Origin: Psammoneis japonica
Lineage: Eukaryota
DNA length: 64,000 nt
NCBI GenBank assembly: GCA_008632985.1
Contig: QPGO01000257.1
Coordinates: 1-64,000, forward strand
Direction of reading: 5' to 3'
The position numbers and the translations under genes were made by a program. This document shows positions 8,145-64,000 of this stretch, piece after piece. The notes below the pieces were generated by a model. The model searched no databases. It had not been told where the DNA came from and was given only the letters and a program-made list of their open reading frames with translations. Each line of letters begins with the position of its first letter. Positions within the stretch are counted from its first letter, which is position 1.

Positions 8145-8148
8145 AAAA

Positions 8149-32225: not shown

Positions 32226-32576
32226 CTTGAAACAGGAAATAGATGCGGGCACGCATCTGTTTGTCGAATGGGAAGGTCCGGTTTCTGGTTGGCCAAGTTG
32301 ACATTAAAAAAAAAGCAGTCAGCAGGGGGCGCGAAATCGACACGATCCCGTGTCGATGTGGTCTCAGGCGAAATTTTCATTGTGTCGAATCGGAGAGGAT
32401 GTCAGTTGTGCAGCAAAGGAAACCAATGCGTCGCTCAACGGAAAAGTGATGACGCACGCATTTGTCAATTAACGAATCAAATCACAGTTCACGCGGGTTG
32501 CATCCATCACGCGGGAAAAAGGCAACAAACACGAACAAAACAACGAAAACGAAACACAAAAAGAAGACACAACACC

Positions 32577-38838: not shown

Positions 38839-39049
38839 CATTCAGTCACTTGTTTCAGGTGTTGCTTGCAGTCACGCTGTCAGTCACAACATGTGAAAAC
38901 GATGCTTGACTGATTCGATGTGTGCAATGACTTGTCCTGAGTTCGACTGTGGATGAGAAATGGATGCGGGTGCGCATCAATTTGGCATGGTCTGTCCTTC
39001 AACCGTGGCCACTTGGCATCGATCAGGTGGGGTCTGTCATTCAACCGGA

Positions 39050-39723: not shown

Positions 39724-40119
39724 GACGCGTTCCAGATGCAGGTGGGAATCTGTGTGACACCGGGCCCACAGACTTCTGCGCGCGAGCTCCGCACTAAAAT
39801 CACGCGGCAATTGAAATCTCAATGATCGCCAACAGAAAATGAGGCGGTTTTGCGAGTGCACAAACTCACCCATGATTGAAGCACATCACTTTTTACTTGG
39901 CCAGTTGCATTCTTCAGACATTGAAGAATGCAACTGGCGCATCATTGTCCCCACAAATTTGTTGTGCAAAACGTCTGGGGCTTCGCAAAACAGCGAGTCT
40001 GGACAATTTTTTTTAAATGTCACACGCAGAAATCCATGTGCGAAACATGCAACGGATGACAAAAATTGTTGATGTCACACGTCAGTGCTGCGAGCTCCCA
40101 CCCAGGGCTGGAGCGCATC
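39724..40119. mobile_element. Related MITE subfamily (same ends, different interior)
   Basis: GACGCGTTCCAG...CTGGAGCGCATC; TSD CCTT; empty site at about 42705. Confidence 0.85.
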
Positions 40120-41975: not shown

Positions 41976-42120
41976 TCATTTCCGCATTGCCGCATTGCCG
42001 CATTTTCGCATTTTTGCATTTTCGCATTTTTGCATTTTCGCATTTTTGCATTTTCGCATTTTTGCATTTTTGCATTTTTGCATTTTTGCATTTTTGCATT
42101 TTTGCATTTTCGCATTTCGC
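41976..42120. repeat. 8-bp microsatellite (GCATTTT[T/C])n
   Basis: Direct reading; many consecutive tandem units. Confidence 0.95.
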
Positions 42121-42743
42121 GAAGCTCCAAAGGCGGTCTTTAAATCAAGAACAATCTCACCACATGTTGCAGGGGGGCACTGAAGGGACACAGCCCACTG
42201 GCAGGGCACTGATCAAACAAGATTTGCGGTGCAAGTGTTTGGCGCTGGGGGCACCTTTGAGATTTTGTGCCCTCAGTCATGTTGCGCAATTCTTGACACA
42301 GTGCCCTTGACCTTTTTGTGCCCTTGGCTGTTTTGTGCCCTTTCCTTTTTTTGTGCCCTTGAGCATTTTGCCCCATCTTGCGGTTTTGTGCCCTTGGCCA
42401 TTTTGTGCCCTTTGTGGCTTTGTGCCCTTGGCCATTTTGTGCCTTTTTTGGTTTTGGGCCCTCAGCCACATTTGGTGCCCCTCATGATTTTGTGCCTTCA
42501 GCAATTTTTGGCCATTGTGGTTTTGTGCCCTTTGCCACCTTGGGCCCTTTCTGATTTTTTGCCCTTGGCAGCTTTGTGCCCTCAGCCACCATTTTGCACC
42601 CTCAGTCATTTTGTGACCTCAGCAATTTTGCACCCCTGCCTGGTTTGTGCTCTTTGTGATTTGGTGCCCTCGACAGACATTTTTTGTCCTTTTTGATTTT
42701 GTGCCCTTGGCCATTTTGCTGGTCACGACAGAGCTGCAGAACA

Positions 42744-43133
42744 GACGTGTTCCAGCCCCAGGTGGGACTCCGTGTGACATTGGGCCCGCAGAATTCTGCG
42801 TGCGAGCTCCGCAGTGCAAGAATTTAATCAATGGACACATTTGTCTTCAACAGCAAACAAACGGCCAAGTTTGTGGCACAATTGTGCCTCTTGCCACTCG
42901 ATGTTTTTGCAAATGCGACTGCCCTGCACGATTCTCAAGACAGCACAGAATCGCGCTGTGACAAAAAATGTCAAAAGTTGTTGGACGGATCGCTCAATGA
43001 GTGCACCGTAAAATGACACAAAATGTCAAAAAAATCATGTAGAAATCTACGTGCGCGACATGCGACGTGATTCAAAAAACTGTCGATGTCACAGTTCAGC
43101 AGTGCAAGGTCCCACCTAGACCTGGAACGCGTC
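42744..43133. mobile_element. MITE copy C
   Basis: TIRs; TSD AACA; empty site at about 40155. Confidence 0.92.
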
Positions 43134-43911
43134 AACAACAAGAACCTGCCCGACGAAGAGCGCAGGGCAAAGGAGAGAAAGTGCGTGAGATGCCTGAAGC
43201 ACTTCATGGCAGGGAACTCCAAGAATGGAGATGCGGGAGGGAGTGCACCCAGGAAATGCAAGAGGGAGGATTTTTGCAGGAAGATTGTGGCAGAGCGTGA
43301 CAGGAAAGTGTCGGAGGGGGGCAATGGGTCGGGGGATGAGGAAAGCCGCATGGGGGGTTGGACCCAGACACATGAGCTGGAGCCAACACCTGTTTGGCAG
43401 ACAATGTGTGAAAAGTGGCAGTCACGTTTGTTGCAAATGACGTTGCAGACACAATCTCAATTGAGTGACTGCATCAGAGTGCATGACATTGTGACATCTG
43501 CGCACACAACAAAAATGTGTTGCCACATCATAAAATCCACTTGTCTGCACATGACGGTTTTTGTTGCTCAGCTGGTTGTCAATCTCCTGCTGTTCTTCAT
43601 GTTTGAACACAGATGTTTTTTAATTTTTGTGCTCTGCCTTTTTCACAACAACTGACGATTTTTGGCGACAAGCCAAACATTGCAGTCACATGCAATGAAA
43701 TTTTCATCATGCAAAGTGCACACCAATCATTCATTCAACAACTGTGCTCCAATTTGCCCAGTCGTCCGCATCGTCCTCTTCATTCCACATGTCTTCTCCG
43801 CTCTCTTGCAAGAATTTCAAATGTGCCGCTGCCGCGTTGGATGTTTCCTCATCACCGTTCCAAAAAAGCCACACTGCATTTCTTGCATTTGGGTGAACAT
43901 CATCGAGAGGA

Positions 43912-44301
43912 GACGCGTTCCAGCCGCAGGTGGGACTCCGTGTGACATTGGGCCCGTAGAATTCTACGTGCAAGCTCCGCAGTACGAGAATTCAATCAAT
44001 GGACATGTTTGTCTTCAACATCAAATAAATGGCCAAGTTTGTGGTGCAATTATGCCTCTCACCACTCGACTTTTTTGCAAGTGCGCCTGCCCCACGCGGT
44101 TCTTAAGACATCACAGAATCGCGCTGCAACAAAAAATGTCAAAAGTTGTTGGACGGATCGCTCAACAAGTGCACCGTAAAATGACACAAAACATCGAAAA
44201 AATCACGTAGAAATCTACGTGCACGACATACGACGTGATTCAAAAAACTGTCGATGTCACAGTTCAGCAGTGCGAGGTCCCACCTGGACCTGGAACACGT
44301 C
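43912..44301. mobile_element. MITE copy D
   Basis: TIRs; TSD AGGA. Confidence 0.92.
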
Positions 44302-44913
44302 AGGAAGAGGTCCCTTGAAACGCTGAATCGCATTGCTGCTCCCCTCTTGATGTCGTGTCGTTGGCTTCTTTTTCTCTTTTTTCATTTTGCCCATCCCATT
44401 TTTCTCTTCCTTCCTTGTCTTGGTGCCGCCTGTTTTCACCGTCTCCGGTGTCTTTCCATCCGAGTCCTTCTTTTTCATCAATCCTGTTGCCGTCGCCTTC
44501 ATCTCTTGTTGTTGTTTTTTTTTCTGTTGGGTGTCACTTTGTTTTGGATCCATGTTTCTGACTTCTCATTTCCGAGTGTTTCTTTGTGATTGTTCGCATG
44601 CGTCACTTGAAGGCACCCACGTGTTTTTCACGTGCCTTGATGCGCGTGCAGAAATCCATGTTGTTTTCCAGTGCATGCACCCTTTCTCCTGATGCTGTTC
44701 CGCACAACATTTTCTTCCATCAATTCTGCACTCCGTGCTGCCCTTTCCTGGCACAATCTCATGTGGGATTTCCCTGGGAGAAGTTGCGCGCGCGTCTGGC
44801 AGGTTTTTGTGTTTAAAACTCCAAATCACACCAGGCGCGCATGTGACTTCTCCCACACACCACTCTGGCACATTTCTGCAGAAACCAGATTTTTTGGTGT
44901 TGGAACAGCAACC

Positions 44914-47900
44914 ATGGCGCCGCATGACCTGTCAGTCGCCTCTCTGTTGCAAGACAACAATGATTCCTGCCTCAAGGAGGCCGCATTTGAATCTCTCTTT
45001 ACCAACAGTTTTGGAGTGATCGACAGCAATGAGCAGAGCCATGTCAAAGCAACAATCGAGACGGTGAAATCCAAGGTTCAGTTTCACCACGATTCCACTC
45101 ATGATCCCTCTCCGAATTGGATCGCACTTGCCCATGTGTGGCAAAAGTCAAAGGGCAGACCTCATTTTTTTGTGGAGCCAATGGCTGTGAACCACATTGT
45201 TGCAAAGGAACTTGGGTGCAAGAGCTTGCTGCACTTTCTTTCCACAAAAGGATGGAGTCATTCCAGTCAAGGCGGCAAACATCCTCATGCGTTGGAGTGT
45301 CGCCGTGCTCCCAAAGCAGAGGACATGAAAGTCATCGGCGACAAGGCAAAATCAACAGACATTGCAGCCAACATGATGGCAAAGATTTCCATGTTGTGCA
45401 AGCTTCTCCATGATCCCGGATTGTGTGACCCAAAGGGAGAGCCACTTGACAAGCACATCAAGCTGAGAAGTTTTGAAGGGAAGGTTTTGCGCCATGCACA
45501 GCACCTTCACATTGGTTTTTTGATTCTTCGTGACAAGATTCCACCGTGCGCACCTGAAAGGAATGGTGATTGCGGTTGTTGGCTGCACTCCCTGTTCGGC
45601 GAATGTGACGAGACATCGGCCCACATCAACTTTTTGGAGAATTTCCTGGCTCTTGGTCACTGTGAGACGACCAAAGACGAATGCCCCATGTCCTTCCCTG
45701 AACTCGTAAAGTCATTGTTCCGCCAACACAAAATTTCTTGGGAAAAGCCTGTGCAACTGGCGATGCTCAATGTTGAGCGAGAAAAAATGTGTGCAACACA
45801 TGTCGATGAGACTCTTTTAAGATGTGTGAAAATTGATCGTGTGGTTTCTGTCACTGACGATTCCGGCAAAAGCAAGGCTGCAAGGGATCGTTTTGAGGCC
45901 ATGTGGAAAGCCAGGCTTCATGACTTTGCCGCTCAGTGCAAGAAGAAAGAAATCGGCAATGCAGTTCCATCTGTTGCAAAAAATGCTCGGAAACAAAAAA
46001 ATCCAAATGGCATGAATCCATCATGTTGTTTGATTGATTGTTTGTGCTCCTCTTCTTGTCTCCAATTCTTCTGTTCTTCTTGCCACCTCTTTGGTCACCT
46101 CCCTTTGCTCCTCAAGCCCCAGTCTCAAAAACCCCAAAGATGGTGAACCTTCTGATGTTTCTCAGAATGAATCGCTGATTCCCCAAGATGTGCCGACTCT
46201 CGAGGAACAATTTGAACATTCCCGAACAAAGTGGCCGACCCTCGGCACGACTTGTCAGTCGCCTCCTCCTCCGCCAAACAATTTCACAAAAGAATGAATT
46301 GTGAAAGTGTTTCCTGAACCATCTCCGTTTGTGATTCCGGGTGAGGTGAAGTCACAACATTCTCACCTTGTCGTCTTTGAGGAAACCCCCATTTCCGGTT
46401 CCTTCAAGGGGAGCTGTGTCAAGCACCAGTTGTTCCACAGCATCTCCAACTTCCACTTGGTGAATCACCTCCGCAAGTTCATGCATGGATTTGAAAACGG
46501 CATGGCTCCCAATGATCCGACGCAAGAATCGATGGTTGCGATTGCTTGCCCGACCCAGTCAACCTTTCATTTTTCCAACGTGGTCACTCATTTGCGATGC
46601 ACGGACAAGATGTTTCTGAAATGCTTTTTTGGATTGCAACCCAGTGTGTCGTTGACACTCCATGCAGTGTTGGAACATGGCGAGCCAAACAAAAAAAGGG
46701 ATGGACCAGAATGCAAGTTGCGCTGTCGGATCTGTTTTGGTTGTTGTGGCTGGAATTGCGCAGATGGTGAGTCAGCTGAAGTGGGACCTGCTCACAAGCC
46801 TGGTGCTGTCTTTGGCAGGGACAAGTGGGAGAAGCTTCCAAAGGATGTGCAGGCAATGACAGCCTCAATCTTGGACGCCGCGCAACTCTGCGAGGATGAA
46901 ATTGATCTTGTTGCTTTGAAAGAAATGCGTTCCTTCCATGACCCGTGCCGTGATGGTCTTTTTGTGGCTGAGCTCCACAAGATGGTTGGAGCCAAGCATG
47001 TTAGAAAGGAAGGTGTGGAAATTCAAGTGAAGCGCATCTCGTCATCCGGCAAAAATCTGTCAATTCGAAAACCGAGCTGCACATTGACAAAGAAGATTGT
47101 GGCATGGATGGGCACACCAAGACTGGTGCTCTTTGCTCGTCACTGCGAGACACTGTTGGTCGCTCTTGGTCATTGAAGGTTGTCACTGCATCCAAAGGCA
47201 ATGCTGGAAACTGCGTCAGTTCAGCACATGAGCATGCCGAGTTCCGATCGTGTGTGCATGGTCATTTCGCAAAACTTGATCTGTCACATGCTGCAGAAAT
47301 GACAAGACACCGTGGCCCTTGTCATCTTCCTTTGGGCAAGCCAACCCACAGAAACATCAAAGATTTTTTCCTTGACCCTCACTCTGTGTGGGTGGAAGAG
47401 GAAATTGGCAAGCCAAATCTTCCGTCCGACACAGTTGAGCATCCCGTCATTGTCATGCCGCGGAAACGTCTTCCGTTTGCCATCGTGAAGGACTTCAATT
47501 TCTCTTGCGGTTGTTCGGCAATCATTGACAACCTCGACGAGGTTGGTGCACACGACTGCTTTTGTTGCGCCATTGTGGCTGGGCATCAAACCGGATTCTC
47601 CCATTTTTGCCACTTGTTGTGCAACACAGATGCTGCGAAGCGTCCTTTCGTGGCTGGTGATCATGTCCTTCATTGCTTCAGAGAAGCTGCAAGGCCATTC
47701 AGCAGCATTGCGGGGGACTCGATTTCGAGGAGGTTCATGTGGCAGAGTGCGGGATGAAACTCAACGGTTTGATGGACTTGCTTGTTGGCAGACTGTTTGT
47801 CATCATCGACTGGATCAATGACAATGTTGGCAATCCAACGTTTGACCACAAGGCGATCGAGGATGTGTTCAAAACCGTGGTCCAAACATGGGATCATGCA

Positions 47901-48269
47901 GGTGCTGATTGTGGAGAGTTCAGATGCATGAACTCCATGCAGATGTTGATGCTGTGTGGCACGGGGATCCATCCTCACCCTGGCCTTCGTAATCTTGTCC
48001 ACCCGGCAGCCAAGTTGGGAGCAGCGAAGCAAATGGAGGAAATGAAGGTCCCGGCAGAGGGTGATTTTGATTTGGAAGACTGTGGAAAGAATGGCCCAGA
48101 GTCTTTGCTGTGTGACCTGAGTGCAGCTCGTGAAAAGATGGGAATCTGCAATGTCTTTTGTTGTGGACAGCATCTGTTGCTCTTGTTCTCTGATGGGCAA
48201 TCAATGATCAAGCGGTTTGGAAGGCATGGGTGGGAGCCAGCCCCGCTCGTGTCGATTGATGAAGTTTGA
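44914..48269 (+). pseudogene. Unknown gene P1 (degraded, several ORF pieces)
   Basis: ORFs 44671, 46301, 47104 and 47673; homologous to P2 (GHTKTGALC vs GHTKTRALC; HPHPGLRNLVHPAAKLGAAKQ vs HPHPDLRNLVCPVSKLGAAKQ). Confidence 0.55.
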
Positions 48270-48399
48270 GCCGAACTGGAACGGCAAAGAGAGGTTGCTT
48301 TTTCATGGCAATCACATTTGTTTTTTGTCTGATCACGCTGACATCATCACATTGAATTCTCGTTCTAACAGGAAGAAGGCCGCTGGTGATTTGTTGTCA

Positions 48400-49385
48400 T
48401 TCGCAATGAACAAAAGTGACGATTGTGAGGAGGAGTCAATTGACAAGAAAACAAGCAAACTTCCAACTGCTTGCATGGGTGAAGAGGACAAAAGCAAAGA
48501 GCCCATTGACAATGAGCACAACCAAGTTTCACATTGCTCCGAGGGTGAAGAGGACCACAGCGACTTGGGAGATTGTTTCGCAAGTGACAAAACCAATGGG
48601 GAAACACACAATGTGCTGTGGTTGGGGATGACCCGTCCGCTCAATGCAAGGCATCTATCTTCTCAAGAATTGTGCTCTGAGAAGGGGGTGGCCTCAGTGT
48701 CGTCCGACCAACACAGGCGAGACGAGGCCCGCGCAATGGCATTTGAGGAAACTGACAAAACAACCACAAACGTCGTTCTGACAGTTTCTCTCCAAGATGG
48801 CCATCCTGATCTGCACTTAAATTGCAATGTGAAAGCAAGAGATTTCATCAAGAGAGTCAAGCAGCAGTTTGAGAAACTTGTTGATTTCGAAAATCATGGG
48901 TTCGACCAAATCATGTTGGACCACTGCTGGATGCCAGATGGAGAGTGGCACGACAGTCGTTTTGGGACGACTCAATTTTTCCAGAATCTAATTGATCTTC
49001 GGGCCTTGCTCTCCAAAAATGAAGAAGGGGGGACACAGTGATTCCCTTCACTCTTGCAACCTTCTTCCAGGTTGTCAAACAATGAAAGAAATTGTCGGCT
49101 GTGTTCGACATGTGCACAATGGACAATGATGCTGCAAAGAGCTGTGCGAGCACATTCTTTGCAAGCAACCTTGTGACCCAAGAACAACAAGAACGGTGGT
49201 TGGGAAAGCCCTCCAATCAGGAAGAAGCTCATCTTGGAGTTTCCGAAGAAGTCATCAGAACAAAAGCAACAGAAGGTGCTCGCACTGCACTGCTTCACGT
49301 GTGCCTCAATGACTTTGCCAATTCTGAAAGGATCAAATTCATCATGTTTGCAAGAAAGAGTTGGGAAATCACTGTGAGTGAATGA
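48400..49385 (+). pseudogene. Unknown gene or exon Q1
   Basis: HLNC...FDQIMLDHCWMP...SRF; homologous to Q2. Boundaries approximate. Confidence 0.5.
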
Positions 49386-49688
49386 CAGATTGACACGTGC
49401 ACCCCACTTTAGAAACAAATCTGACCAACACTTAATTCTGTCCTGTGCAGCCCAAACAAACAGGGCCTTTTCTTGCGCTTCTGCTGCTCCTGGACATTCT
49501 TCATGAACCAAAACATTGTCCCCAATTGCTTTGACAGGGACAACCCACAACTTGGGTGAGCACTGAGTCTTCTCAGGCATTGAAAGCCAGTTGTTTTGTT
49601 TGTGATCAAACTGCCAGCGACTGACCAAGTCTGTGTGCTGATGCCGTTGCCTCACAGTTTTCTGGTCAATGTTGACAGGGCCTTCATC

Positions 49689-52204
49689 GGAGCAAGAATT
49701 CCGAGATGTGCAAGCCCGTCAGTGGCGCATTGGACAACACCCTGGACGCAGACGACAGCCGACAGGAGGCTTTCGTGAAGTTGCAACAAGAGCACGTTGG
49801 GACCTGTCAAACACAGGTGGCTCTTGGAACAGCCATCTGCCACCTGCAAAGCAACTCAAATCTGACAGTGAAGGATGTGAAGGAACAGATTCACTTCGGA
49901 GGATTGAACAGCGAAGACAAGGAGGACACTTTTGCACCTGAAGAGCAGGAGTCGGAGCAGACATTTGAAGTCACCCATGAAACCTGCAAAGACGCGATGA
50001 ACCGAAGGCGTGGCACATCTCCAAGGGTTGTCAACTGCCGGAATTTCCAAGCTCTTTTTGATGAAGACACAGAGACAAAGAAACGATTTGAGCACGAGTG
50101 CGACTTGATTCACAAGAACTTCAGCAAGGCAATGCCATGGGCGTGCAACAACACAGCGCGCAATGGATTCAAGAAGGAAAGACTGGAGAACGAGGACAAA
50201 ATGAGAAAGACGATTTTGGAAGACAGAATTGAGGAAGAGAGCAAGAAAAGGAAGGCGAAAAAGAAAAAAAAGCAGGCAAAGAAGGACGAAGCGGCGCGAG
50301 CAGAGGTCACAGCGGAGGGACAACAAGGGGGAGACGACGACGAAGGGATGATGGACACCACCTTGGCAGACCTGCGGCACCAAGATGGGAGCACACAACA
50401 AGTGGGCGACGATGCAGCCGGCAAGCCCACAGTGGAACATGACAAGGAAGCGGGTGAGGAAGAGGAGAAGGAGGAGGAGGCACCAGAGCAGAAGGATGAG
50501 GAGGAATCAAGCGACAACAACGACAATGATGATGATGACAAAGATGGAGATCACACCCCAGACAAAGACGGAGATGGCACAAACCCTCAAGATGAAGAAG
50601 AAAGGAAAGATCGTTCAGATGAGGGGGGCAATGGAGGCACCGGCCAGTCGCCAGATGACAAAACACAACAAGTGGGCGAGGATGCAGCCGGCAACCCCAC
50701 TGTGGAACATGACAAGGAAACAGATGAGGAAGAGGAGAAGGAGGAGGAGGAATCAGAGAAGGATGAGGGTGAAACACGCGACAACAACGACAATGATGAC
50801 GATGACAAAGATGGAGATCACACCCCTGACAAAGACGGAGATGGCACACCCCCTCAAGATGGAGAGCAAAAGAAAGACAGTTCAGATGAGGGGGGCGATG
50901 GGGGCACTGGCCAGTCGCCAGATGACAAAGCGACTTCTGACAGAGACGGAATGTCAGAGGAGAATGACCATCAACAGGGGGGGCAAGGAAATGACAAAGC
51001 AGATGAAGAGGAACCATCTGCTGCAAACCCTGAGCAACAGGTGAAAGAGGATGAACAAAACATGGGTGTGGCTGGGAGTGATGCAGATTTGAACAACGAA
51101 CCCCTTGCAAGCGGCAGTGACAGCAACAGCAGTTGCTCCCTCCTGAATCGAATCAACCAAGTGCCACGTTCCGCTGCAAGGAAAAGACAGCTGAGAAGGG
51201 ATTTGGTCTCCTCATCCTCTGAATCATCCTCTGAATCGGAGATTGATGCATCAGATGATGACAACCCTTCAAGTGCTGCAGCTGCTGCCAAAGTTTCAGC
51301 CAAGATGAAAACCCCGTCAAAGGTGTCTGAACCACCAAACAAGAATGTGAGGAAAAGAGTTGTTTGAGCAACTCCGGATCGTGAGACAAAAACGGACGCA
51401 AAGAAATGCAGGGCGATGGCGCTGGCCGAAATGGAGGAAAGAAAGGAACAGGCAAGGAGGAAGAGAATTGAGGCAGACAAGAAAAGGGGGGGGGAGGCGG
51501 CAGCAAGAGCGAAGGCAATGGAGGCAAAGAGAAAGGAAATGGAAAAAATGAAGAACGCCAGCAAGCCAAAGAAGGACACGCCGCCGACAGGAAGAATGAC
51601 AGCAGAACAACCCCCACCCATCCAAACAAATTCGTCAAAGAAAAAAAGACGTGCAACCACCCGCGGAACAAAAAACAACAAAAATGAAGTTTGGGCAGTT
51701 GGGCACATGCATCGACCACAAAAATGTGTGCGGGGAGCATCGCAGTCTCAAAATGGCTGCATTGCTGTGAATCCCACAACATTCATTGTCCACTTTTTGT
51801 TTTTAGGTTTGTGGTGATTTTAGCATTCAGTCACTTGTTTTGGGTGTTGCTTGCAGTCACGCTGTCAGTCACAACATGTGAAAACGATGCTTGACTGATT
51901 GGATGTGTGCAATGACTTGTCCTGAGTTCGACTGTGGATGAGAAATAGATGCGGGTGCGCACCCATTTGGCATGGTCTCTCCATTGACAGGAGCAAATTT
52001 GTGTCAATCGCTTTGGCAAATGCATGTCATAAGGTCGGCTGTTGATGAGAAATGGACACGGGTGCGCATCCATTTGGCATGGTCTGTCCTTCAACCGTGG
52101 CCACTTGGCATCGATCAGGTGGGGTCTGTCATTCAACCGGAAGCGTTTCGTGCCACCTCATGACCCAAACCCAAACCCTCCCATCCCAAATACACTATGT
52201 GCAA
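49689..52204 (+). mobile_element. Large repeated element, copy 5 (left-truncated, ~2.5 kb)
   Basis: Homology starts at ggagcaagaattccgag. It ends cccaaatacactatgtgcaa, the least mutated version of the terminus. Confidence 0.8.
50393..50930 (+). repeat. 270-bp tandem duplication of the acidic segment, specific to copy 5
   Basis: acacaacaagtgggcga at 50393 and 50663. Confidence 0.9.
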
Positions 52205-52960
52205 TTTCAACAATGGACTCCTCATGCAAGACATGGGAAAGAAATGTCTCGATGTCAAAAGGGACGCTGGCGGCACCGCCAACTTTCATCACGTTCAACA
52301 GTTCAGGCAACGTCCCGCTGAAGAAGAAGCGCGGGTTGAATCTGCAGCTCAACCAACCCTTTTGCAACCAAAAGCAATCCAAGTTGATTTCCTCAAAGTC
52401 CCTTCCGAGCTTTGTGATGACCTCGTTGCAAAATGCAGGGCTGCGTGCACCGCAGTTGAGGTGATGGGCGTTGTGACAGTCGCTTGGAGAAGCTGTGCAA
52501 AGTTCACAATCAATGGTGCGGTTGGTTGCATCAAGCACAACATCACAACAGGCAAGTGTCCTTGTTGCATCGGATCTCAGTTTGGAATTTCCACTGAACA
52601 AGTCACCGTTGATGTCGTCAAGCACATTTGTGAACGACAGAGAATCAATGTTGTTCATCTGTGTCATGCACAAAAACAACACCTTTGTTTTCTTCTGTTG
52701 CGCCGGGAGATCCAGGCTCTCTTGAGGTGATTCCCTCATGTCGTTGAAGTCCAGTGATTCAGAGTCACAGTGTTTGTCAGCACCGTTGGGAGGAACACCT
52801 CTCTTGTCCTTGGGACAACTCAACTCTCGTTGTGCCGCCGACTTGTTGACATCTGAGCCAAAATCATTTGGGGGTTGAGAAAATTCTTCTTCCTCTGATG
52901 CTGCATCTTGATTTTCCAAATCACCCAGGTCTTCCCCAGGCACTCCAGTTCTTTCAAAGT
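52205..52960 (-). pseudogene. Unknown gene or exon Q2, paralog of Q1, truncated by the element terminus
   Basis: HLNC...FEEINLDCFWLQ...RF in ORF 52158-53069. Confidence 0.5.
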
Positions 52961-52989
52961 GGAAGAACAAGAGAGGCAATTGGAAAACA

Positions 52990-55500
52990 TCCAACGCAAA
53001 GCACAGTTTGGTGTTGAAACTTGCCCCTCCACCATGATGGGAACAGCGCCCCAATGTCCAGCACCACATCGCTTCACGCCAGGGGCAGCATCATCTCCAA
53101 TGAGCATGAAAATGTGCTGACCATGAGCGCAGTGCTCTTCAATGATGCCCTCAACACGATTTGGAGCACGCCAGTCACAGAGGACACATTCCCTGCTGGA
53201 GCCACTGTGATGCTCCACTCCATGTTCGACCATTGGCAAGTCAGCACACGCTGCACAATCGTTGGGGTCCAAGTGCTCTGACTGCTTTGCGGCACCAAGT
53301 TTGGACACAGGACAAACAAGATTTCTCAAATCAGGGTGGGGATGAACAATGATTCCTGCGCCAACCAGCATTTGGATGACCAACATCAAACGAAACTCAT
53401 TGATGTCGGCTCCTCTTGGGAATTTCTTGATTGCCAGCCAGAAACGCATCTCCAGCATGGCATGGTGGAAATCCGGAGAGCCGGTGTGATTGTCAATCCA
53501 TTTCAACAAATCAAGAATCACCGCCACCATTTCATCCACAACACCTGACATCTCGAGGCGATCAAGCCAGAGATCGCCCTCTCCCTCAATGTCTGTTTCA
53601 GTGTTGTCGTCAGCAGATTCTCTGGCACCGAGAATGTCTTCAATGTCAGCATCATCAGGGAGAACTTCTTTCTCCAAGTTGGACAAAGAGACCAGGCAGG
53701 TGTGCTTCCAGTTGCTTCTTGCACAGGTGGGTTCATCTGATTTCCTCTTGCGGCCAGTGGCAGAGGAATCTTTGCAGCAGGTCTCAACAAAATTGCAGCC
53801 GCTGGGGTTCAGACGGTGTGGAGCAACTCCTGCATCTCTGGCGGCAGTGCCAAACAGCTTCATGGCCAGTTGACAGCAGACAAGTGCAGGATCGGAACTG
53901 GGTTCAGTCAACTTGTCCCTGTGCTCCATGCCAATGTGGAAGAACCGGTGGAGTCCAGTCTGATGAGAAGCCATGATTGCCATCTTGACAACCTTGTGGA
54001 TTCCAAGCACATCTCGGAGTTGGAACAGGATGGTGACCCCCATTGACAACCACAAATCCTGAATGCAGGAGGTGGGAAACTCCAACCTGTCCATGACAAA
54101 CCAACCAGCCTTGTCGAGTGCCTTTTCCTTGCATGGGCAATGATCATCGAGAAACATGTTCTCGGGATGGCGGTGGCTCCAATCTTTTTGTGGACCATGA
54201 GGACCCTTGTGCGACAAAGAGAACTCCTTGCACGCGCGATTTATGGCTGTGACGTGCTTCAGCATCATTGTCTTCAACAGCAGCAACATCAGATGCTTGT
54301 CAAAATGTTCGCCCGCACACTTCCGGCTGTTGGCAAGGAACTTGACAGAAACAACATTCCCCAACTTGTCCAGGATGAAAAAACACAGGGCTCTGGTCTT
54401 GGTGTGTCCACAAAAAACACAATTTCGATCATCTGGATGAATCTGCGCACCATCAGGCATGATCTCAGCTTGGACAGTGCCAAGCTCATTCCTTGCTGCT
54501 TTGCAACCCAGCCCAGTGCGAAGTGCGGCCCGACACATTGCAGTTCTTGCGGTGTTGTTGCAGGGTCAAGGATTGCCAAAGTGCTCCATCTCCAGCTCAT
54601 CATGGCACCTCTGCATGGAATCGCACACATCCGCAAGCATGGACTTGATCTGATTGCAGATGACGACGTTTTTTTCTTTCTCAAAAATTCCAAAACCGAC
54701 TTGCAGTGATGGGACTTTCTTGCCATTCTTGAGCACATTGTGAGACAGACCACAGCAGCCAAAATCAATCTGGCCCCGTTTGTCTGGCTGCTTGGACCAA
54801 TCTTCGTTGTTTTTCTTGCAGCACATGATCTTCCCGTCATGATTGGGATTGGAACAGCCGTGTTCAAGGACAAAACGGGCAATCATGCCGACATCAACTT
54901 GGAGAGATCCAAAGTGTTTCTGCCAAAGATGGGAGGATGAGCGCAAAATGGCAGCGTCATCCTGAGTGCGCTGACCTCTGGGTGGGACAACTGCTGGCTC
55001 CTGGTCATGATTTGCGGCAGAAGGAAGTGGTTGCATCATCACAAAGGAATGGAGATGATGTCGCAGATCATCAAGTGAGCAACAGTCCACTGGAGAATGA
55101 CGCAGGTTCAACTCACAATTGGCAGATTGCTTGTTGTCATCATCGTCGTAACCCAGATCATAAAAAATGCAAATGCAAGGAGCATGCCTTGAGACATCAG
55201 AAAGGGACGCAAAGCGACAACAATGACCATGGGGGAACCAATCGTCGATTGACGAGGAAGTTTTGTGCTGGCCAATGTGCTTGGCTTTGATGGAGATGCT
55301 GAAGAAGTGACTCCTCCGTGGATGGACCCACAGCACTGGCATTGGGAACATTCTGGATGGGGTGGTCTTCAGTCAATGATTCACCCAATGATGATGACTC
55401 TCCGTCCAACAACGCCTCGACTTTGTCTTCAGCCGAAGGTTGCAACTGGGAGGCAAGTGCACTCATGGAGTGATTGGTGGACGGTGGGGCATCAGCCATG
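52990..55500 (-). pseudogene. Unknown gene P2, paralog of P1
   Basis: ORFs 54566-55351 and 52820-54538. Boundaries approximate. Confidence 0.55.
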
Positions 55501-55802
55501 GTGCCGGTTGGATGAGCGACAGGATTCTGGTTGGTTTCTTTCTTGGATGAAGTGGGCGGATGTGCCAGAGAACCAGCAGACACACTGGAGGACTCCTTGC
55601 TCTTCTCCCTCCTCTTGGTGGAAGAAACAAACTTTGCCTTGGCCGCACGGGAAAGGCATGGATGCGTGAGATCGCGGACACGTGATCGCACAATTGCCAG
55701 GTTGCGGAACTTGAGACAATTTGTGTCCTTGCAGGAACACTTGAAGGTGGAGTAGAGCTCATGCTCAACCAACTCTTGGTGTTTTTGTGCCATGCCTTTT
55801 GC

Positions 55803-56091
55803 CAAAAGACTGACCCAACAGCTGCAGGACAAAGGCATTTGAGGCATTTGGCGAGGGCAAGGCAACACTTTAAGAGCTGTGTTTTGGCTTTGATGGGTTC
55901 ACATGGTGCACTTGTGCCCCCACATTGCTTGCAGCTTTTGCAAGTGCAGAGTTGTTGTGGCTGCACAGCCACAAGCAAGAAACCCACCCAAACCAATGGG
56001 GTTGCTCCTTGTGACATGCAGAGTGCGTGCAAAAGCCACAAGTGCAAGCCATTTGGCAGAAGTGACTTTCTGCTCTGGCACTGTCTGGCAC
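55803..56091. repeat. ~290-bp direct repeat, second copy at 59374-59661
   Basis: Apparently identical sequence. Confidence 0.9.
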
Positions 56092-57199
56092 TTAGGCTTG
56101 ATTCTGGCAGTTACAACAATCAAAGACTGGGGCTGTGAGATCAGCAGAGGGTGTCCAGTCATGAGTCTCGATGAACTTCTGGCAGCGGTGCTGCGTCTCG
56201 ATGATTTTTTTTTAAATTGGGACTTCATTGTGCATGGTCGTCAAGAACAGAAACATCGCTTCCGTCTAAAGAATCGGCACCCACATCATCTTCATTGGGA
56301 TGAGAAAGATCACCAGCACAACCGTCAAGGTCTCCGGATGCAGACGGTGCACTGGCATGATCATTGCCTTGAGCAGATGAGTCGTTGCCACCGGAGCAGT
56401 CGTCAGAGCTGAGATTGACGTCATTGGAGAGGTTTGCCGCCATGTTGGATGATGTCAAAAAAATGTCATTGAGCGAGCCGTCATGGTCTGGAGACGTGAC
56501 AAAGTGGTGCGATGGGCAAGTTTCGCATTCGGCGGCATCCCCAAATGACTCAGAGCCAGAAGAGAGACATTGCTTTCACTTGGGCGTGACTTTGAGATGG
56601 GGCATGGTTGCAACAGCAGGAGAGGAACACCGCCATGGGCTGTCGCGGCATGAACAGAGGACACATGGAAACCACGGACTTGTTGTCACACTCTTTCGCA
56701 GTTCTGCGCAGATTCGCCAAAACCACAGGGGATTGGACCCACAGATCACAAGTGGAAGGGACAAATGCCCCAAACAGGATCGCTCGGGGGAACGGCGCAG
56801 ATGAAAGATTGTGACTCGGCAGAGAGGAGGGGGTTTTGGGGGAGAGCAGAAAAGGGTGGAAAATTTTGTGGAATTGTCAACATCCATCATGAGGATGGAG
56901 ATGCAGAAATTTTGGCAAAAATGCCTTGTTCAACATGAAAATGAACATTTTTCAGCTGGAACGAAGTGCAACTGTCCCCAGTTGAGGGAATGACAGTGCC
57001 GTGTTACTTGGCATTTTGGCACACAAGTCAATGAATGTCAATTAAATGGAATGTGTCGTGGAACAACAAATGCCTGACACTCCAATCTGCAAATTGAAAA
57101 TGAACAAAAATGTTGTCTTTCCAACAAGCAAACATCAATTTCAATCTGGAGTGGGACCCACCAATCTGGGTGTGCACGCGCATGCCATGAGATGGTGGG

Positions 57200-57420
57200 G
57201 TTCGATGACTTGCAACTGAAGGCCTTTTCTGCGGGCCTCTGATGCATGGGAACCAGACTTGCCACCACACTGTCCTTGAGCATTTCCCTGCTTTGCCAAG
57301 GGGGGCCTGTTCCAGGTCATCAATGCTGGCAAAACCCTGACGATTGACACAGCTGCATGTCTGGGGATTGCATCCACAGCGCACAAGAGCAGCACTGAAT
57401 GCCTTGGCAGCAGCCATGGC
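57200..57420 (-). pseudogene. Possible gag-like N-terminal remnant of an LTR retrotransposon
   Basis: MAAAKAFSAALVRCG...QGFASIDDL resembles, from memory only, N-termini of diatom Copia-type gag proteins. No pol or LTR found. Confidence 0.25.
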
Positions 57421-58301
57421 GTGTGACACACAGCTTGCATTTAAAAGTGTGTGTTTGAACTTGAGCAAGTGAAAATCATGTGGAGTTCAGTGCACTTCAG
57501 CGAATGCTGAGAGCAAGCCCATGAGCACGTCAGCTCACCATCTCACATTGCAGTCTGCACTGGTTGATGCAAAACTGATGATGACACACATGCAAAATGC
57601 AGCCACAACAGCAACCTTCACACAAACAATGATGTGATGGCTGCATTGTTGTCCAAATGTTCACATGCTCAGCCAACACATTTCATTCCTGTGATCTGAC
57701 ATGTTGCACTCCAACAACACATTCAACGGATCAATGCTCTGGACTCAAAGAGCATTTCGTTCATGTTCGTGAACACAAATGCATGCAAAGAACTCAGCAA
57801 TTGCACAAGCAACCATGAGACCAACATGGCGCATGCACACAGAAATTGATCAATTGCAATGATGCCATTGTGCCATTTGCAATGCCCATTCTCTTGCTTT
57901 TGTTTTTGTTTCAAGTCAAAAAACCGTTGTGGATTTGCCTCCGCAGCCAATCCATTTTTGTGCTTTTGTTCAACTGTCTTGGGAACAAATGTGATTGAGG
58001 TGTCCTCTTTCAGAACATCCTCTTTCAGAACATCCTCTTTTTTTTCCCAGGCTGCCCAGCCTTTCTCTTCCATTCCGTCTGGCCCTTTTTTGCTGGGGAC
58101 ATGCTTTTCCTTGAACCTCACTTTTCCCAAAATGAAGCAAACAAAAATGCTCCACATGCACTGGCAAGATCACATTTCTCCAAATGCAACCCGCAAGGGA
58201 AAAATGTCTGTTGTTCCATTGACGGCTGTGGTTGTCATGTGCCCAAAAATGCTCCATGTGCAATTTTTGAGAGAAACATGTCTCTCTTGTTCCATTGGTG
58301 T

Positions 58302-58800
58302 CTGTGGTCATTTGTGTGCCCAAAAATGCCCCACATGCATTGTTGACAGCAAAACCTCAAAACGAATTTGGCAAAGCGTGTCAAGCACATGGCATGCGTT
58401 GACTTGTTTTTCTGCAAGACATTGTTGATGTCATGGCCATCGCCTCCTCAGAAGCTGGAAACAAAAGAAAGGGTGAAGCAAAGGAAGCAAGTGGTGAGTC
58501 TGTTGTGTCACAAGAAGTGGAGTTGACCAAGTTCAAAGAGTGTGAAAAGGCCGCTTGGTGTCTGTGGCAATCAATGTGCCCAAAAAAGCTCCGCATGCAT
58601 TGCTGAGAGCAAAATCATCAAACCTTCAATCTCAAAATGAATTTGGTGAAGTGCACCAAGCACACAGCATGCATTGATTCATCTCACTGCAAAACATTGT
58701 TGGCATCATGGCCGCTGCCTCTGCAGAAACTGGAAAGAAGAGAAAGGGTGCTCCTGATGAAGCAAAGGAAACAAGTGGCAAGTCTGTTGTGTTGAAAGGC
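58302..58800. repeat. Diverged ~260-bp tandem duplication
   Basis: ctgtgg...tgtgcccaaaaa...catgcattg...gcaaaggaa at about 58302 and 58562. Confidence 0.7.
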
Positions 58801-59761
58801 ATGGAGGAGATGGATGAGTTTGAAGATGTTGAAAAGGCTGCTGGCAGGGCACATGCAGAAGTCACACACAACAAGTGAGCCTGAAAGCCACAAGATTGAA
58901 CAGGTTGTCGAAGGTGACAAAACCATCTGGCATGTGCCGGAAGATTTTGACAGTGATGACTTTTTCTCTGATGAGGACAACATTTGCATGCCATGTGAAC
59001 TTCCAACTGCAAGCGATCTTCCCAACAAGCTCCACTGCAAAAAGCTTGTTGCAGCAGGTGTGCCCACCGTCTTGGTGAAGACCATCAAGGACTCGACTTG
59101 CAACCCCATTCATTCTTGTTTTGTCCCCAAATGTCTGGACGTGCTTTGTCACATTTCCAACCATGAACACCAGCTTGGCATCAATGTGACAGCTGGCACC
59201 AATGCATGCATCAAAATGTTGAATGAAAACTGATGCAGTTGGCTGTGTGTGCTTCAATGACAAGGTTTGGCAAAAGCGACCATTTTCTCGTGTCACAATC
59301 TTGTGCTTTTCCCTGCATAAATTTGGAACCCATGCTGGCACACCCAAAAAAGCAATGTTGCGCCGATGTCCCCAAAAGACTGACCCAACAGCTGCAGGAC
59401 AAAGGCATTTGAGGCATTTGGCGAGGGCAAGGCAACACTTTAAGAGCTGTGTTTTGGCTTTGATGGGTTCACATGGTGCACTTGTGCCCCCACATTGCTT
59501 GCAGCTTTTGCAAGTGCAGAGTTGTTGTGGCTGCACAGCCACAAGCAAGAAACCCACCCAAACCAATGGGGTTGCTCCTTGTGACATGCAGAGTGCGTGC
59601 AAAAGCCACAAGTGCAAGCCATTTGGCAGAAGTGACTTTCTGCTCTGGCACTGTCTGGCACTTTGCCACCAGGTTTCTCCCTCTGTTGGCTGCCCGCTCA
59701 AGAATGAAACAACCCCCAGATGGCCCCAGTCAACCTGACAGCTGCAGACAGAGGGCAACGG

Positions 59762-61028
59762 GATGGGCTCCAGTCCTGGGTGGGACTCCATGTGACATTG
59801 GTCCCGAAGAATTCTGCGTGCAAGCTGCGCAGCAAATTTGTCAAGCAATGAAAACACAAATGACCGCCAACAGAAAAAGCGGCAAGTTTGTGAATGCTTC
59901 TCCTCCTCCACAATTGCAGCGCATCATTGACAGCTTGCCCGGGCATGTTCTGCAGACATCAACCCTTCAACCACTGGACACAGTGAATGAAGTGATTTCA
60001 GATGTGCGCAACATTTCATTCACGCGATTTTGTTTTGGAACGCACACTCGCCAAAAATCTGGGGGAACCCTTTTTGCAATTTAGAAAGTTCAATGTCAAC
60101 TTTTGACACCGGGCTTTTTGCAAGCTTCATCCATGCATGGAGAGGAGCTAAATCTGAACCTCAAACAATGGAGGCCATCATGAGTTGCTGTCAAAAATGG
60201 AGCATTGACACCACACCCTTGGAGCAAATCTCCGCTGGTGGAAATTTGCTTGCAAAACAAGCAAATGCACGTGGTGCACTTTGCATGGATTGTGTGCGAC
60301 ATGACATTTTTGTGCCATGTTCACTGCATTGTTGCACAAGTGCATGACACGCCACAAATCCTCAAGCAGAGCAAATCTCCACACCCGTGGAGATTTGCTC
60401 CCTGTGGAGATTTGCTCCCCTGGTGGTTGAAAGGGTTAAAGAATGCACCCAGAGCATTTTCATTCTCATGAGTGTTGAAAACAGAAAGCCTTTGGCCTTG
60501 CAAAGTGGGGAGCACGAAACAATTTTGTAGAGTGTCACGCAGAAAACTGCGCGCACGACGCGTTCCAGCCCTAGGTGGGACTCCGTGTGACATTGGGCCC
60601 GTAGAATTCTACGTGCGAGCTCCGTAGTACGAGAATTTAATTAATGGACACATTTATCTTCAACATCAAATAAACGCCCAAGTTTGTGGTACAATTATGC
60701 CTCTTACCACTCGACGTTTTTTGCAACTTCGCCTGCCCTACGCGATTCTTAAGACATTATAGAATCGCGCTGTAACAAAAAATGTCAAAAGTTGTTGGAC
60801 GGATCGCTCAATAAGTGTACCGTAAAATGACACAAAATATCGAAAAAATCACGTAGAAATCTACGTGCGCGACATACGACGAGACTCAAAAAACTGTCGA
60901 TGTCACAGTTCAGCAGTGCGAGGTCCCACCTAGACCTGGAACGCGTCGCACGACGTGCCGTGATCCAAAAAAACTCTTGATGTCACAGCACAGCAGTGCA
61001 AGGTCCCGCCCAGAGCTGGAGCGAGTTG
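59762..61028. mobile_element. Older, longer relative of the MITE family, hosting nested copy A
   Basis: Left end gctccagtcctgggtgggactccatgtgacattgg; right end gatgtcacagcacagcagtgcaaggtcccgcccagagctggagc. The TSD is not clean. Confidence 0.65.
60557..60947. mobile_element. MITE copy A (391 bp, TpA intact)
   Basis: Perfect 12-bp TIR GACGCGTTCCAG, extending imperfectly to GGTGGGAC; TSD GCAC. Confidence 0.92.
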
Positions 61029-62359
61029 TGGGTGCTTTTGGCGCACACAAGGAAGCACATTGAGATCTGTGGTGCAGTGCAGCAAGGGCCGCATGGTCAA
61101 CTTGTGATCTCATGTCATCTCATGCCCGACCCCGGAGGAGAGTTGAGCTTCAAGTTGCAGCTGTGATGAGCGAGGTGGGCAGCTGCAAAAAAGGAAAGAT
61201 TGGTCCAAGAGGGTCAGAGGTGTTTGCCATCAAGGCTGACCACAAAGAGCTCAAGACTCTCCATGCAGCAATGAAGGAAGCTGCCACATTCTTGCAATTT
61301 GAGCAAGCTGCAGATGTGGGGAAGTGCAGTCTTCCCACATGGAATGTGCCATCATCAACGCATCGGTGTCATGGTCATAAAAGGGAGTGCACAGTTGCTT
61401 TTTTCATGTGTGTGTTTTTCAAGTTTGTGCGACCTTCGCAGCTGCGTGTGCCACGTGAAGATTGTTCCTCAAGACGCGCCCCGTCACAACATTTCTGACA
61501 CCCACCATGAGATGGACCCATGATGGTCAGATGAGAAATGTGGGTGTTCGGATCACCAAAGGGACCCCAAAGACACCACAATTTGCACTCAATGCTCGAT
61601 TTCGACCAAATGCACACTTTTTGCCATGCCCGAGTGTTGCCTGGTGAATCCGTGGAGAATTGCACAGTTCTAGCTAGAGTGAGACAAATTAGTTCTACAG
61701 TGATTATGAGCAAAAATGTCCGAAGACAACGTGGGACATTAATGAGTCATTTTTGAAAGAAAGAGTCATTAATAAGTTGTGCAATGTTAATTTTCGTGTA
61801 TTTCTTTAATCCTCATTTATCAACAAATAGTTGCAATGATCACATTTAGTTATTTTCGGGAATGTTCCCAGATCAAAAATTGTTCTGTACAGCACTGTAG
61901 TTCAAGGTGACACACGTCACACCCTTTACAACCCGAAAGGAGACTGCCACTTTGCCATGAGCTAGCAAGCAAGGTCTGACAGTCTCAGAGACAACGACGC
62001 ATCCGCATTATAATCATCGTCGTCCAGATCAGGTTTTGATTTGAAAGCCCTCCAACCAAGAAGAACAGTCATGTTTCATGAAGGACCGTAGAGAACACTC
62101 ATGGGGCGGAACTTTACAAATGATGATTTTAAAAGGCAAGCATCCGCAGAGTGAGCGTTAGTAGGAAGCTTGCCATCAAGGTGTTCATGCGCTTAGCACT
62201 CAGCGTCTCCTTTTCTTTTGGAATAACAACTTCCAACGCAACAGCTCCGAACCAATGCAAAAGTCCCTTAAGAAGCCACTTTTAATTGCCAAGAATTCAA
62301 GGTCGCGAAAGGGTTGCGGTGCCCATTGTTCCATTTTATCCCAACAGAAATACTAGCGT

Positions 62360-64000
62360 TCAATCATTATCTTCCTCCTCGTGCAATGACTCCAGTTGAC
62401 GCTTATTGTCTGTCTCCTCGCTCTCGACTGGTACACCTTTTCGATCAACTGTGTTTGAAGTGGCAACAGAATCATCTTCCGTATTCTTATCGCCGCTTTT
62501 CAATGCTTTCAGCTCTTCGCGCAGAGCCAGATTTTGCATCTCGAGATCATCAATTTTCGTCTGCAATGACGTGGGGTCTGTAGCTGAATGATTTGATCCC
62601 CTTATGCCCCGCCTCAATGAATGGCTCGATGATCCACTGAAAGGTTCAGATACCCCAGTAATACGGACGGAGGAAGAATCATTTGGCAATCGCACTGACG
62701 GAGTGCTAGACCTACTTGTATTCAAGCGTCTAGTAGGAAAGTACTTCTCTTGAAGTACCCGATAAATCTTGGGCCAAATAACCATGACTGGCGTAGAAGT
62801 AGAAAGCACGAACACAAAGAAAACCCGAGTAAGGTAGGCGGCATCCTTGGACACGTCGTCAAGCACGAAAATGAGTGGTAGACCGACCAACCATGACTGA
62901 AGGTGTGCGAATACAGCGAAGAAGACCCACATGGATTCAGAATATTCAGACTGTATTTCTCTTGTTTTCCATGCGACAACCATTGTCATTACGGTGATCG
63001 TGGCAAGCAGGGCAAGCAATGGAACTACCCATGCGGCCAAGTTTGTATCAACAGTCTGACAGTCTCCGTAGGTAATTTCTCTACCGGCGGAATCCGGGTC
63101 AAGAAATCTTCGCACCCATGACAATGGATCAACCAACTGCCAAACAATAAGTACCACAAGGCAGAGTGTGACAAGTACAAGAAACGGTATCATTGCCCGG
63201 GTCACCGTAACAGTTCTTCGTCGAATAGAAAAAATCTTTTTTATCCTCCAGAGTTTGCAATACATCGCGCAGTACATCACCATGTAGCCTATGGTGAAGA
63301 ACCATGGTACGGCTGCGCATCCCCTGTTCAGCTTCGTTTGAGACCATCCATCGCTCTCATCGAACGACACGAACATAACTGATGACATGAGTACCGAGGA
63401 CCCAACGCACAGCAAACCAAGAAAGAAAGGTTGAGATGCCTTGAGAATACTGGTATTTCTCTTCCAGATAACCCATACCAAATAAGAAAATGAAATAACG
63501 TATGATAGAGCCACAAGCATAAACCCAGCCATTTGTACAGAGTTGGAAAGAAAGTTTGGCTCTATGACGGTTACCAGCACCTCCGGCTCATCTGGGGTCC
63601 CGTCGTAGTAAAGGAATTCGGCGACTTCAGTCCACTCTCCTCTTTCGTACAGAGATGATAGCACTGCCTCGATCCTGGGAAACATGGAAGTGAAATAGGC
63701 CTTTTGAAATGATATCTAAAAATAGCATTGACGTGTTCCAGGAACGTACCTTCCTCCATCAGACCTCAAATTGTAAATTCCAAACCTAGAATCGTCACTG
63801 CTAACTTTCCCATCAACCATTTCCACTTCTCCTGAAGCACCGTCAAAACTAAATTCTCCACGTTTCAAGAAATCTTCTTTGCTACAGGTTCTCAAACAAT
63901 GGGTTATTACCGCATCATAGACAAAGGATGAATATGGCACGGGATCATTAGATTGGAAGAAATCCGACTCGGCAGGAGTGAAATCGGGCATGCCACGCTG
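62360..64000 (-). CDS. Class C (GABA-B receptor-like) G-protein-coupled receptor, 5'-partial; intron 63675-63749
   Basis: ORF 62360-63685 has seven hydrophobic segments with 7tm_3-like motifs (ILKASQPFFL, CKLWRIKKIF, YSESMWV, IWPK) and a C-terminal coiled-coil-like stretch. The upstream exon (YDAV...FDGASGEV) resembles the end of a periplasmic-binding/ANF-type ectodomain. A 75-bp GTACGT...CCCAG intron joins the two in frame (DGGR|IEAV). TpA and Tyr content are normal. Confidence 0.88.

Follow-up and report, generated by a model that had tools for sequence, protein, structure and literature searches.

Why do copies of one short transposon, all lying in the same stretch of DNA, carry anything from 25 TA dinucleotides to none? 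The question arises in a 64,000-nt window (positions 1 to 64,000 of contig QPGO01000257.1, GenBank assembly GCA_008632985.1, Psammoneis japonica), in which a first-pass annotation made from the letters alone had recognised four ~390-bp copies of a miniature inverted-repeat transposable element (MITE), here called A, B, C and D, and had read them as a time series of TpA mutation. Our analysis of the copies, of their surroundings and of the contigs of a run designated X1 leads us to consider it probable that TA has been converted to TG or CA in place, after insertion, within a silent, repeat-rich domain, that the MITE copies form an age series, and that the process is of the type reported for integrated viral DNA in Bigelowiella natans (Mettrop et al., bioRxiv 10.64898/2026.01.13.699255).

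TA loss in the MITE copies

Using blastn, we find exactly three full-length relatives of copy A in the window, with identities of 92.6% (D), 91.8% (B) and 90.8% (C); their coordinates and a recount of their TA sites reproduce the earlier manual figures of 25 (A), 10 (B), 10 (D) and 5 (C) exactly (Table 1). Two older relatives extend the series, with three TA in E and none in the parts found of F. The copies measure 389–391 bp, the ends of the element pair in inverted orientation across 26 bp (blastn, 92.3%), and the 4-bp target duplications are perfect in three of the four copies and split in B, as had been noticed, with two paralogous empty sites for B: a short element with terminal inverted repeats of about 25 bp, as is typical of a MITE. 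Copies A and B contain no open reading frame (ORF) of at least 110 aa in the scanned set, and ORFs of this size overlapping C, D and E have no Pfam match. In run X1 the summed word depth over the MITE is 139,000–190,000, as against 51–53 for single-copy DNA, and the summed contig depth corresponds to a family of about 2,600–3,600 copy equivalents genome-wide. High copy number is also apparent at the termini, where loose contig ends fall exactly at 60557 (n = 26) and 60947 (n = 20), with a low agreement of 0.36–0.37, and beyond which X1 contigs enter many different flanks. Two conserved 21-nt segments of the MITE, each scanned against metagenomes, gave 0 matches.

Scored relative to the inferred ancestor of the MITE copies, B, C and D together show 82 changes, 51 of which sit on the 50 TA positions among 391 (binomial P = 1.6e-25). 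At all 25 TA sites of copy A the other three copies read only TA, TG or CA, and the 165 A/T positions outside TA show three A/T>G/C changes in these copies together, a 56-fold lower rate than at TA positions; B, C and D alike thus changed almost only from A:T to G:C, and on TpA. Copy A has no change at TA or CpG sites and five elsewhere; the corresponding numbers of TA-site, CpG and other changes are 16, 3 and 8 in B, 15, 4 and 6 in D, and 20, 7 and 3 in C. The first-pass annotation had held that most differences fall at A's TA sites and resolve differently from copy to copy, and its three examples (CCTAGG>CCTGGG/CCCAGG, GGTACA>GGTGCA/GGCACA and ATTAAT>ATTGAT/ATCAAT) are all present in the copy alignment. 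At TA sites missing from both members of a pair of copies, the product is shared at 10 of 15 sites for B and C, 5 of 12 for B and D, and 7 of 13 for C and D. This overall agreement of 22/40 is near the ~50% expected if each MITE copy was hit independently. GC-biased gene conversion was considered as a cause and rejected, as it would not be confined to TpA.

The changes are losses of TA. At 10 of the 25 sites one copy reads TG and another CA, which makes TA ancestral, since only TA lies one step from both; at 14, TA is retained by a copy besides A. By one rule or the other 22 sites are securely TA-ancestral and three are ambiguous. CG is absent from all 25 sites in copies A–D, so CpG decay cannot explain them. 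The converse possibility, on which the first-pass annotation would have been mistaken, is that the family consensus has TG or CA and that copy A gained its TAs by C>T change, as in repeat-induced point mutation (RIP). This reading can draw on the three ambiguous sites, at which TA is seen in no copy but A and the other three are alike, but it is already contradicted by the sites where TG and CA coexist and by those where another copy keeps TA, and we regard it as next to impossible. It would also have to accommodate the CpG content of copy A, which has the highest CpG count among the copies (observed-to-expected ratio, O/E, 1.52; TA O/E 0.86): copy A is thereby the least mutated copy overall, and C>T hypermutation would have removed those CpGs. 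The direction measured in B. natans is likewise that of TA loss.

The wider family points the same way. When 4,070 contig pieces from run X1 are piled up, with per-site differences taken from the best 40 of 189 rows, the rows listed give five positions where at least 41% of depth departs from A: 60649, 60651, 60677, 60882 and 60885. In none of the five does the family have TG or CA against a TA in A, the rows listed contain no A>G or T>C at A's TA sites, and the family consensus appears to keep copy A's TAs. At 60649 and 60651 T makes up 43–47% of family depth and A has C, that is, TA in the family and CA in A; the source of A had therefore already lost two TAs, and partly mutated copies still transpose. 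The four bases at 60649–60652 read CACA in A, B and C and CATG in D, with T at both C positions (TATA) in 43–47% of the family. We conclude that copy A is the least mutated copy and not an outlier that gained TA.

Action in place and accumulation

Two arrangements in the window separate insertion from mutation. Copy B is inserted in a unit of which two paralogues lack it; their empty sites lie in ...AAAATGGAGACG... and ...AAAATAGAGACG... and read TGGA and TAGA, respectively. The original target was accordingly TAGA, and the left duplicate of B changed from TA to TG after insertion; one paralogue underwent the same TAGA>TGGA change independently of B. Copy A, for its part, is nested in copy F: without A and one GCAC, its flanks join as continuous positions 293–390 of the same element. 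All four of A's TA sites within this right part of F are lost in F, as is all aligned TA, so that an old copy without TA and a young copy with all 25 share one locus and one family, and location is controlled. The contrast extends to the surrounding DNA, as the first-pass annotation had described, with a TA O/E of 0.09 in the left flank (60100–60556) and one TA in the 453 bp of the right flank (60948–61400). No joint deleting A together with one duplication occurs among the joints listed (15 of 23, run X1), and no X1 contig among those listed bridges A's ends. The empty sites of B and the 22/40 product agreement support the proposal that TA loss acts in place, after insertion.

CpG is also low around copy A, with O/E of 0.23–0.45 at 57000–60556 and 60948–61400, as against ~0.6–0.9 over most of the island and 1.52 inside A, which suggests cytosine methylation of the CpG-depleted part.

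That the loss is cumulative, as had been claimed, is supported by the series from F through E, C, B and D to A and by a rough proportionality between TA and CpG decay. Three-way alignments of the host units contain 49 and 34 sites that were TA at duplication, with 19% survival in both, together with a CpG survival of 87% and other variable columns at ~0.003 per site per copy. At 30 and 21 sites the units disagree, one having TG and another CA, and a CpG origin is excluded for these because fewer than one site would be expected to lose CpG in each of the three units. By the time of duplication the host units had already undergone most of their TA loss, with only about 59 TA sites left per 5 kb. 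The ratio of TA to CpG decay is about 6–12 throughout the MITE copies and host units, and long-term TA decay runs at about 230 times background per nucleotide. Copy B, inserted after unit duplication, is less decayed than its host unit on both TA and CpG (Table 1). Because none of its 25 TAs has been lost, copy A would, at a constant rate, have been resident for less than some 7% of the period since unit duplication.

TA content might instead be set by the position or targeting of a copy and not by its residence time, in which case there would be no time series. Hypermutation in the preprint is indeed regional and episodic (two regions, 11 of 15 lines), and the differences outside TA and CpG are not ranked with TA loss. 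We nonetheless hold this explanation to be quite unlikely: A sits in a domain free of TA and within an older, TA-free member of its family, the decay of TA increases with that of CpG from A through D and B to C, and B is less decayed than the older unit that houses it. As for the unranked differences, a copy should have gained about one background substitution since its insertion (0.003 per site), so that the 3–8 other differences seen came largely with the source copies and say nothing of age.

An age series is not a calendar. Of the proposal that TA counts can date insertions, the order of ages stood and the dates did not; the count is a rough clock only. Two internal palindromes keep their TAs in 10 of 12 site-copies, as against 14 of 63 for TAs elsewhere (P = 1e-4), and since these TAs are gone in E and F, decay there is slower and protection incomplete. 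Among the 173 surviving TAs of the domain, the contexts CTAA, GTAA and TTAA are over-represented and ATAN is almost absent; events per opportunity, by the base 3' of the hit A, are 0.46 for T, 0.41 for C, 0.27 for A and 0.23 for G, in an exploratory analysis of an ascertainment-biased sample. Product bias differs between B (12 TG to 4 CA) and D (3 to 12; P = 0.004), and the host segment of B has 18 TG to 9 CA. Such site protection, neighbour effect and strand bias, along with saturation, the cut-and-paste carry-over of earlier hits and a process active in only 11 of the 15 lines of the preprint, make dating too strong a claim. The subterminal palindromes themselves, CGTAGAA(T/A)TCTACG at 60598–60613 and 60851–60866, hold four TAs in all and may be transposase-binding sites or hairpins.

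We propose that a 391-bp non-autonomous DNA transposon would insert repeatedly into a large silent, repeat-rich domain, where a process acting on DNA would convert TA to TG or CA, an A:T>G:C transition on either strand of TpA, some 230 times faster per nucleotide than other substitutions and some 12 times faster than CpG decay. Copies would be hit independently after insertion, and TA would fall with residence from A, just inserted, through B and D to C and then to E and F. As for the chemistry, an enzyme would deaminate the adenine of 5'-TA-3' in DNA, and the inosine so formed is read as G. The preference for a pyrimidine 3' of the hit A resembles the tRNA anticodon-loop context of TadA. It can equally be stated as a purine 5' of a hit T, and since TA is self-complementary, all observations at TA sites fit equally well a modification of the thymine in 5'-TA-3' (hydroxylation, for example) that is misread or misrepaired as C and gives the same TA>CA/TG. 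We consider thymine chemistry unlikely but worth keeping in view; nothing at this locus speaks for it directly, and the only paper on the signature proposes adenine deamination, with its ADAT2-like candidate untested.

Table 1. Positions of the features in the window, with decay as -ln(survival) for TA and CpG
Feature	Position	Strand	TA decay	CpG decay	Remarks
MITE copy A	60557..60947	+	0	0	391 bp, unmutated; 25 TA, 30 CpG
Copy A target duplication	60553-60556 and 60948-60951	+			GCAC; A inserted into older copy F
MITE copy B	33099..33487	+	1.02	0.105	10 TA (9 ancestral, 1 new); lost 16/25 TA (12 TG, 4 CA) and 3/30 CpG
Copy B target duplication	33095-33098 and 33488-33491	+			TGGA left, TAGA right; from alignment of copies
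Empty site paralogous to B insertion (AAAATGGAGACG)	8991-8994	+			reads TGGA
Empty site paralogous to B insertion (AAAATAGAGACG)	25436-25439	+			reads TAGA, presumed original target
MITE copy D	43912..44301	+	0.92	0.143	10 TA; target duplication AGGA; lost 15/25 TA (3 TG, 12 CA) and 4/30 CpG
MITE copy C	42744..43133	+	1.61	0.266	5 TA; target duplication AACA; lost 20/25 TA (10 TG, 10 CA) and 7/30 CpG
Copy E	39724..40118	+			old, diverged, full length; 3 TA; nhmmer E=4.5e-32
Copy F, left part	59762..59901	+			old; model positions 2-148; 0 TA; old left end at 59762-59892
Copy F, right part	60535..61026	+			old; model positions 293-390; split by insertion of A
Host units since duplication			1.65-1.68	0.14	
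TA-depleted domain	1..61400	.			left end open; 173 TA outside the four MITE copies
Domain edge	61401..61700	.			TA O/E 0.06 left, 0.5 right; dense TA from 61671
7tm_3 (class C GPCR) transmembrane-domain ORF	62360..63685	-			Pfam E=3.4e-29; local TA O/E 0.67

The TA-depleted domain and its edge

The DNA that houses these copies is itself almost devoid of TA. Over the whole 64 kb the O/E is 0.08 for TA, 1.56 for TG, 1.48 for CA and 0.71 for CG, and TA counts per 1-kb window run from 0 to 11 in the first 60 windows and are 29, 20, 42 and 50 in the last four. The depleted domain, in which TG and CA are in excess and CpG O/E is 0.2–1.0, contains multi-copy units of 5–9.5 kb as well as single-copy DNA. 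Its right edge is sharp: TA is at normal density from 61671, ~700 bp short of the gene for a G-protein-coupled receptor (GPCR), whose ORF shares no more than 37% identity with any database protein of comparable or larger size. The single-copy-depth segment 57889–59276, which may be an old repeat diverged past the 85% mapping threshold, has a TA O/E of 0.0. Since it is TA-free, present-day repetition would seem not to be needed for TA loss.

Could a modified base at TpA, miscalled in repeats during sequencing or assembly, produce such a pattern? Strand-specific miscalls would be expected to split between TG and CA, and a 611-N gap shows that the assembly is imperfect. An X1 k-mer contig of 1,378 nt and depth 53, however, reproduces the TA-free single-copy segment with eight differences, although X1 may come from the same sample. 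Moreover, only at two double sites do the arms of a 2,710-bp inverted repeat differ in their choice of TG or CA, whereas MITE copies in identical context disagree; neither random nor deterministic miscalling explains both, and we consider an artefact very improbable. In the single-copy parts, the window and X1 differ mostly by CpG<>TpG/CpA, with 61691 the only TA>TG. The X1 contigs differ by ~0.4–0.6% in the single-copy parts of 57889–63000, gene included (6 in 1,374 nt), from which it follows that run X1 is another haplotype or strain and not an exact copy of the assembly.

Scarcity of TA also distorts the coding signal. On the plus strand of positions 1–60556, TAA occurs 90 times and TAG 51 times (141 together), as against 1,413 for TGA, and the window holds 72 ORFs of at least 200 aa that overlap in all six frames and have no Pfam match. 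These long, overlapping and spurious ORFs arise because TAA and TAG are nearly absent, and gene finders would over-predict in the domain.

The island at 1–39049 and 49689–51982 consists of units of 5–9.5 kb with 3–6 repeats at 93–98% identity, and no protein domain was found in any island repeat unit. It includes a near-perfect inverted duplication (14764–17472 versus 21315–18615, 98.3%), a 731-bp stretch that is 100% identical (14034–14764 and 17468–18198), and the assembly gap, at 26821–27431 within one repeat unit. Beside MITE copies E and C lie degenerate 17-bp tandem repeat arrays (39073–39650 and 42301–42635; consensus near TTTGTGCCCTTGGCCAC) and, in the same region, an 8-bp array (42000–42117). 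Other, unclassified repeat families near copy A, at 59613–60416, 57804–58004 and 61422–61622, have summed contig depths of 3,000–18,800, 1,264 and 1,742, respectively, which against 51–53 for single-copy DNA suggest roughly 25–350 copies.

Relation to known mutators and significance

The process has a published precedent, and our literature search found no further paper with its signature. According to the B. natans preprint (bioRxiv 10.64898/2026.01.13.699255, version of 14 Apr 2026), TpA>TpG/CpA hypermutation strikes integrated viral DNA: 231 of 302 new nuclear single-nucleotide mutations in mutation-accumulation lines fell in giant-virus and virophage regions, 230 of these 231 were A>G or T>C (210/211 in the region of the nucleocytoplasmic large DNA virus, NCLDV, and 20/20 in that of the virophage), all of these GC-biased changes being on TpA, and the rate was ~6e-7 per site per generation in viral regions versus 3.5e-10 elsewhere. 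Hypermutation was confined to two regions and 11 of the 15 lines. The same text reports 124 TpA-depleted, CpA+TpG-enriched clusters in the genome and an enrichment of DDE-endonuclease and reverse-transcriptase domains among low-TpA coding sequences; it treats transposable elements only as potential targets and, in the portion accessible, makes no mention of MITEs. An ADAT2-like deaminase is proposed there, itself untested, and reports of DNA deamination by ADAT2 are cited for amphioxus (A and C) and Trypanosoma (C).

Applying the preprint's thresholds, with rho computed by our own formula, which may give slightly different values, we find rho(TpA) at or below 0.43 in 62 of the 64 windows and both cut-offs satisfied in 29, a double threshold that misses about half of the TA-free windows here. 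Qualifying runs at 39001–44000 (five windows) and 51001–60000 (nine windows) make up at least two clusters. The two systems share transitions restricted to TpA and leading to TpG or CpA, 1-kb-window clusters with TpA depletion and CpA+TpG excess, action limited to domains and the capacity to target a single-copy region. The GC content of the genic part here is 45–46%, compared with 45% in B. natans and 27% in the other sequenced chlorarachniophyte, Amorphochlora (PMC12730881). The two systems differ in that the process acts here on a MITE and on 60 kb of repeats that could not be classified, that CpG decays beside TA here whereas new mutations in the viral regions there are nearly all A>G or T>C, and that the evidence is comparative here and comes from new mutations there.

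What the window itself shows is which way the change goes, that it is restricted to TpA and acts in place, that the domain has a sharp edge and that TA loss is roughly proportional to CpG decay; that the process is the same as in B. natans we infer from the resemblance. Several points weigh against the overall interpretation. Identity with the B. natans system is argued from the signature, and TA depletion here (O/E 0.0–0.17) is far deeper than in the NCLDV region of the preprint (0.45), whose measured targets are viral, whereas none of the 153 domain ORFs scanned reaches a Pfam curated cut-off. One sub-threshold match (baeRF_family10, 19.7 bits versus a cut-off of 27.1) was the closest, and the identifiable targets are the MITE and unclassified repeats, not foreign DNA of viral origin. 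By sequence alone, A>G after T is indistinguishable from T>C before A, and runs tests give no strand clustering of hits in the host units (P 0.07–0.85). At alignment sites 68, 98 and 261 the TA could have been gained in A, and that the unlisted rows of the family pile lie below ~41% is judged from which rows are listed. Copy A carries no hit at all and X1 adds a single TA/TG difference (61691), so that the earlier suggestion of an ongoing process stays unproven for the window; ongoing mutation is documented experimentally for B. natans only. We nevertheless favour in-place conversion of TpA in a silent domain by a B. natans-type process.

Comparison with other mutators sharpens what is distinctive. 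Like RIP of ascomycete fungi, the process is a context-specific transition hypermutation, reminiscent of genome defence, that degrades repetitive or foreign sequence where it lies, with a dinucleotide signature as its trace. RIP, however, changes C:G to T:A, mostly CpA to TpA, and raises TA and AT content, whereas here the direction is opposite, TA being destroyed and GC rising; and RIP needs duplicated sequence, whereas the single-copy-depth segment here is equally TA-free. The A>G outcome and the 5' U/T preference recall the ADAR and ADAT (TadA-like) adenosine deaminases, which are known as RNA editors, in contrast to a change fixed here in genomic DNA, in a transposon, a target duplication and a single-copy flank. 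Methylation-driven CpG decay of silenced transposons affects the same copies and the same domain, yields TG and CA and is cumulative, but it starts from CpG, is about 6–12 times slower per site here, and cannot give sites with the three states TA, TG and CA.

Although TpA hypermutation as a process has already been reported in the B. natans preprint, its action on a MITE and on a 60-kb unclassifiable repeat island, the age series, the nested pair of old and young copies, the proof from empty sites, the scaling of TA loss with CpG decay and the heterogeneity among sites are new. It is possible, and we advance it tentatively, that TpA hypermutation is no oddity of two viral inserts but a general defence directed at chromatin domains, which strips transposons and entire repeat islands of almost all TA (O/E below 0.1), halts abruptly where genes begin, operates alongside CpG decay and may exist in an organism or strain other than the published one. 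If so, the ~3,000-copy MITE would be a built-in reporter and relative clock, and the slow loss of palindrome TAs together with the preference for a pyrimidine after TA would point to a deaminase acting on single-stranded DNA. A natural mutator of A:T to G:C that acts at the DNA level against invading DNA would mirror fungal RIP and the APOBEC defence of animals, and would be the natural counterpart of engineered adenine base editors. To an evidence base consisting so far of one preprint and two viral regions, the window adds the signature on a DNA transposon after its insertion, a 60-kb island almost without TA and a sharp boundary by a gene, and its abundant MITE family offers thousands of independent, orderable targets from which the rate, targeting and context of the process may be read.

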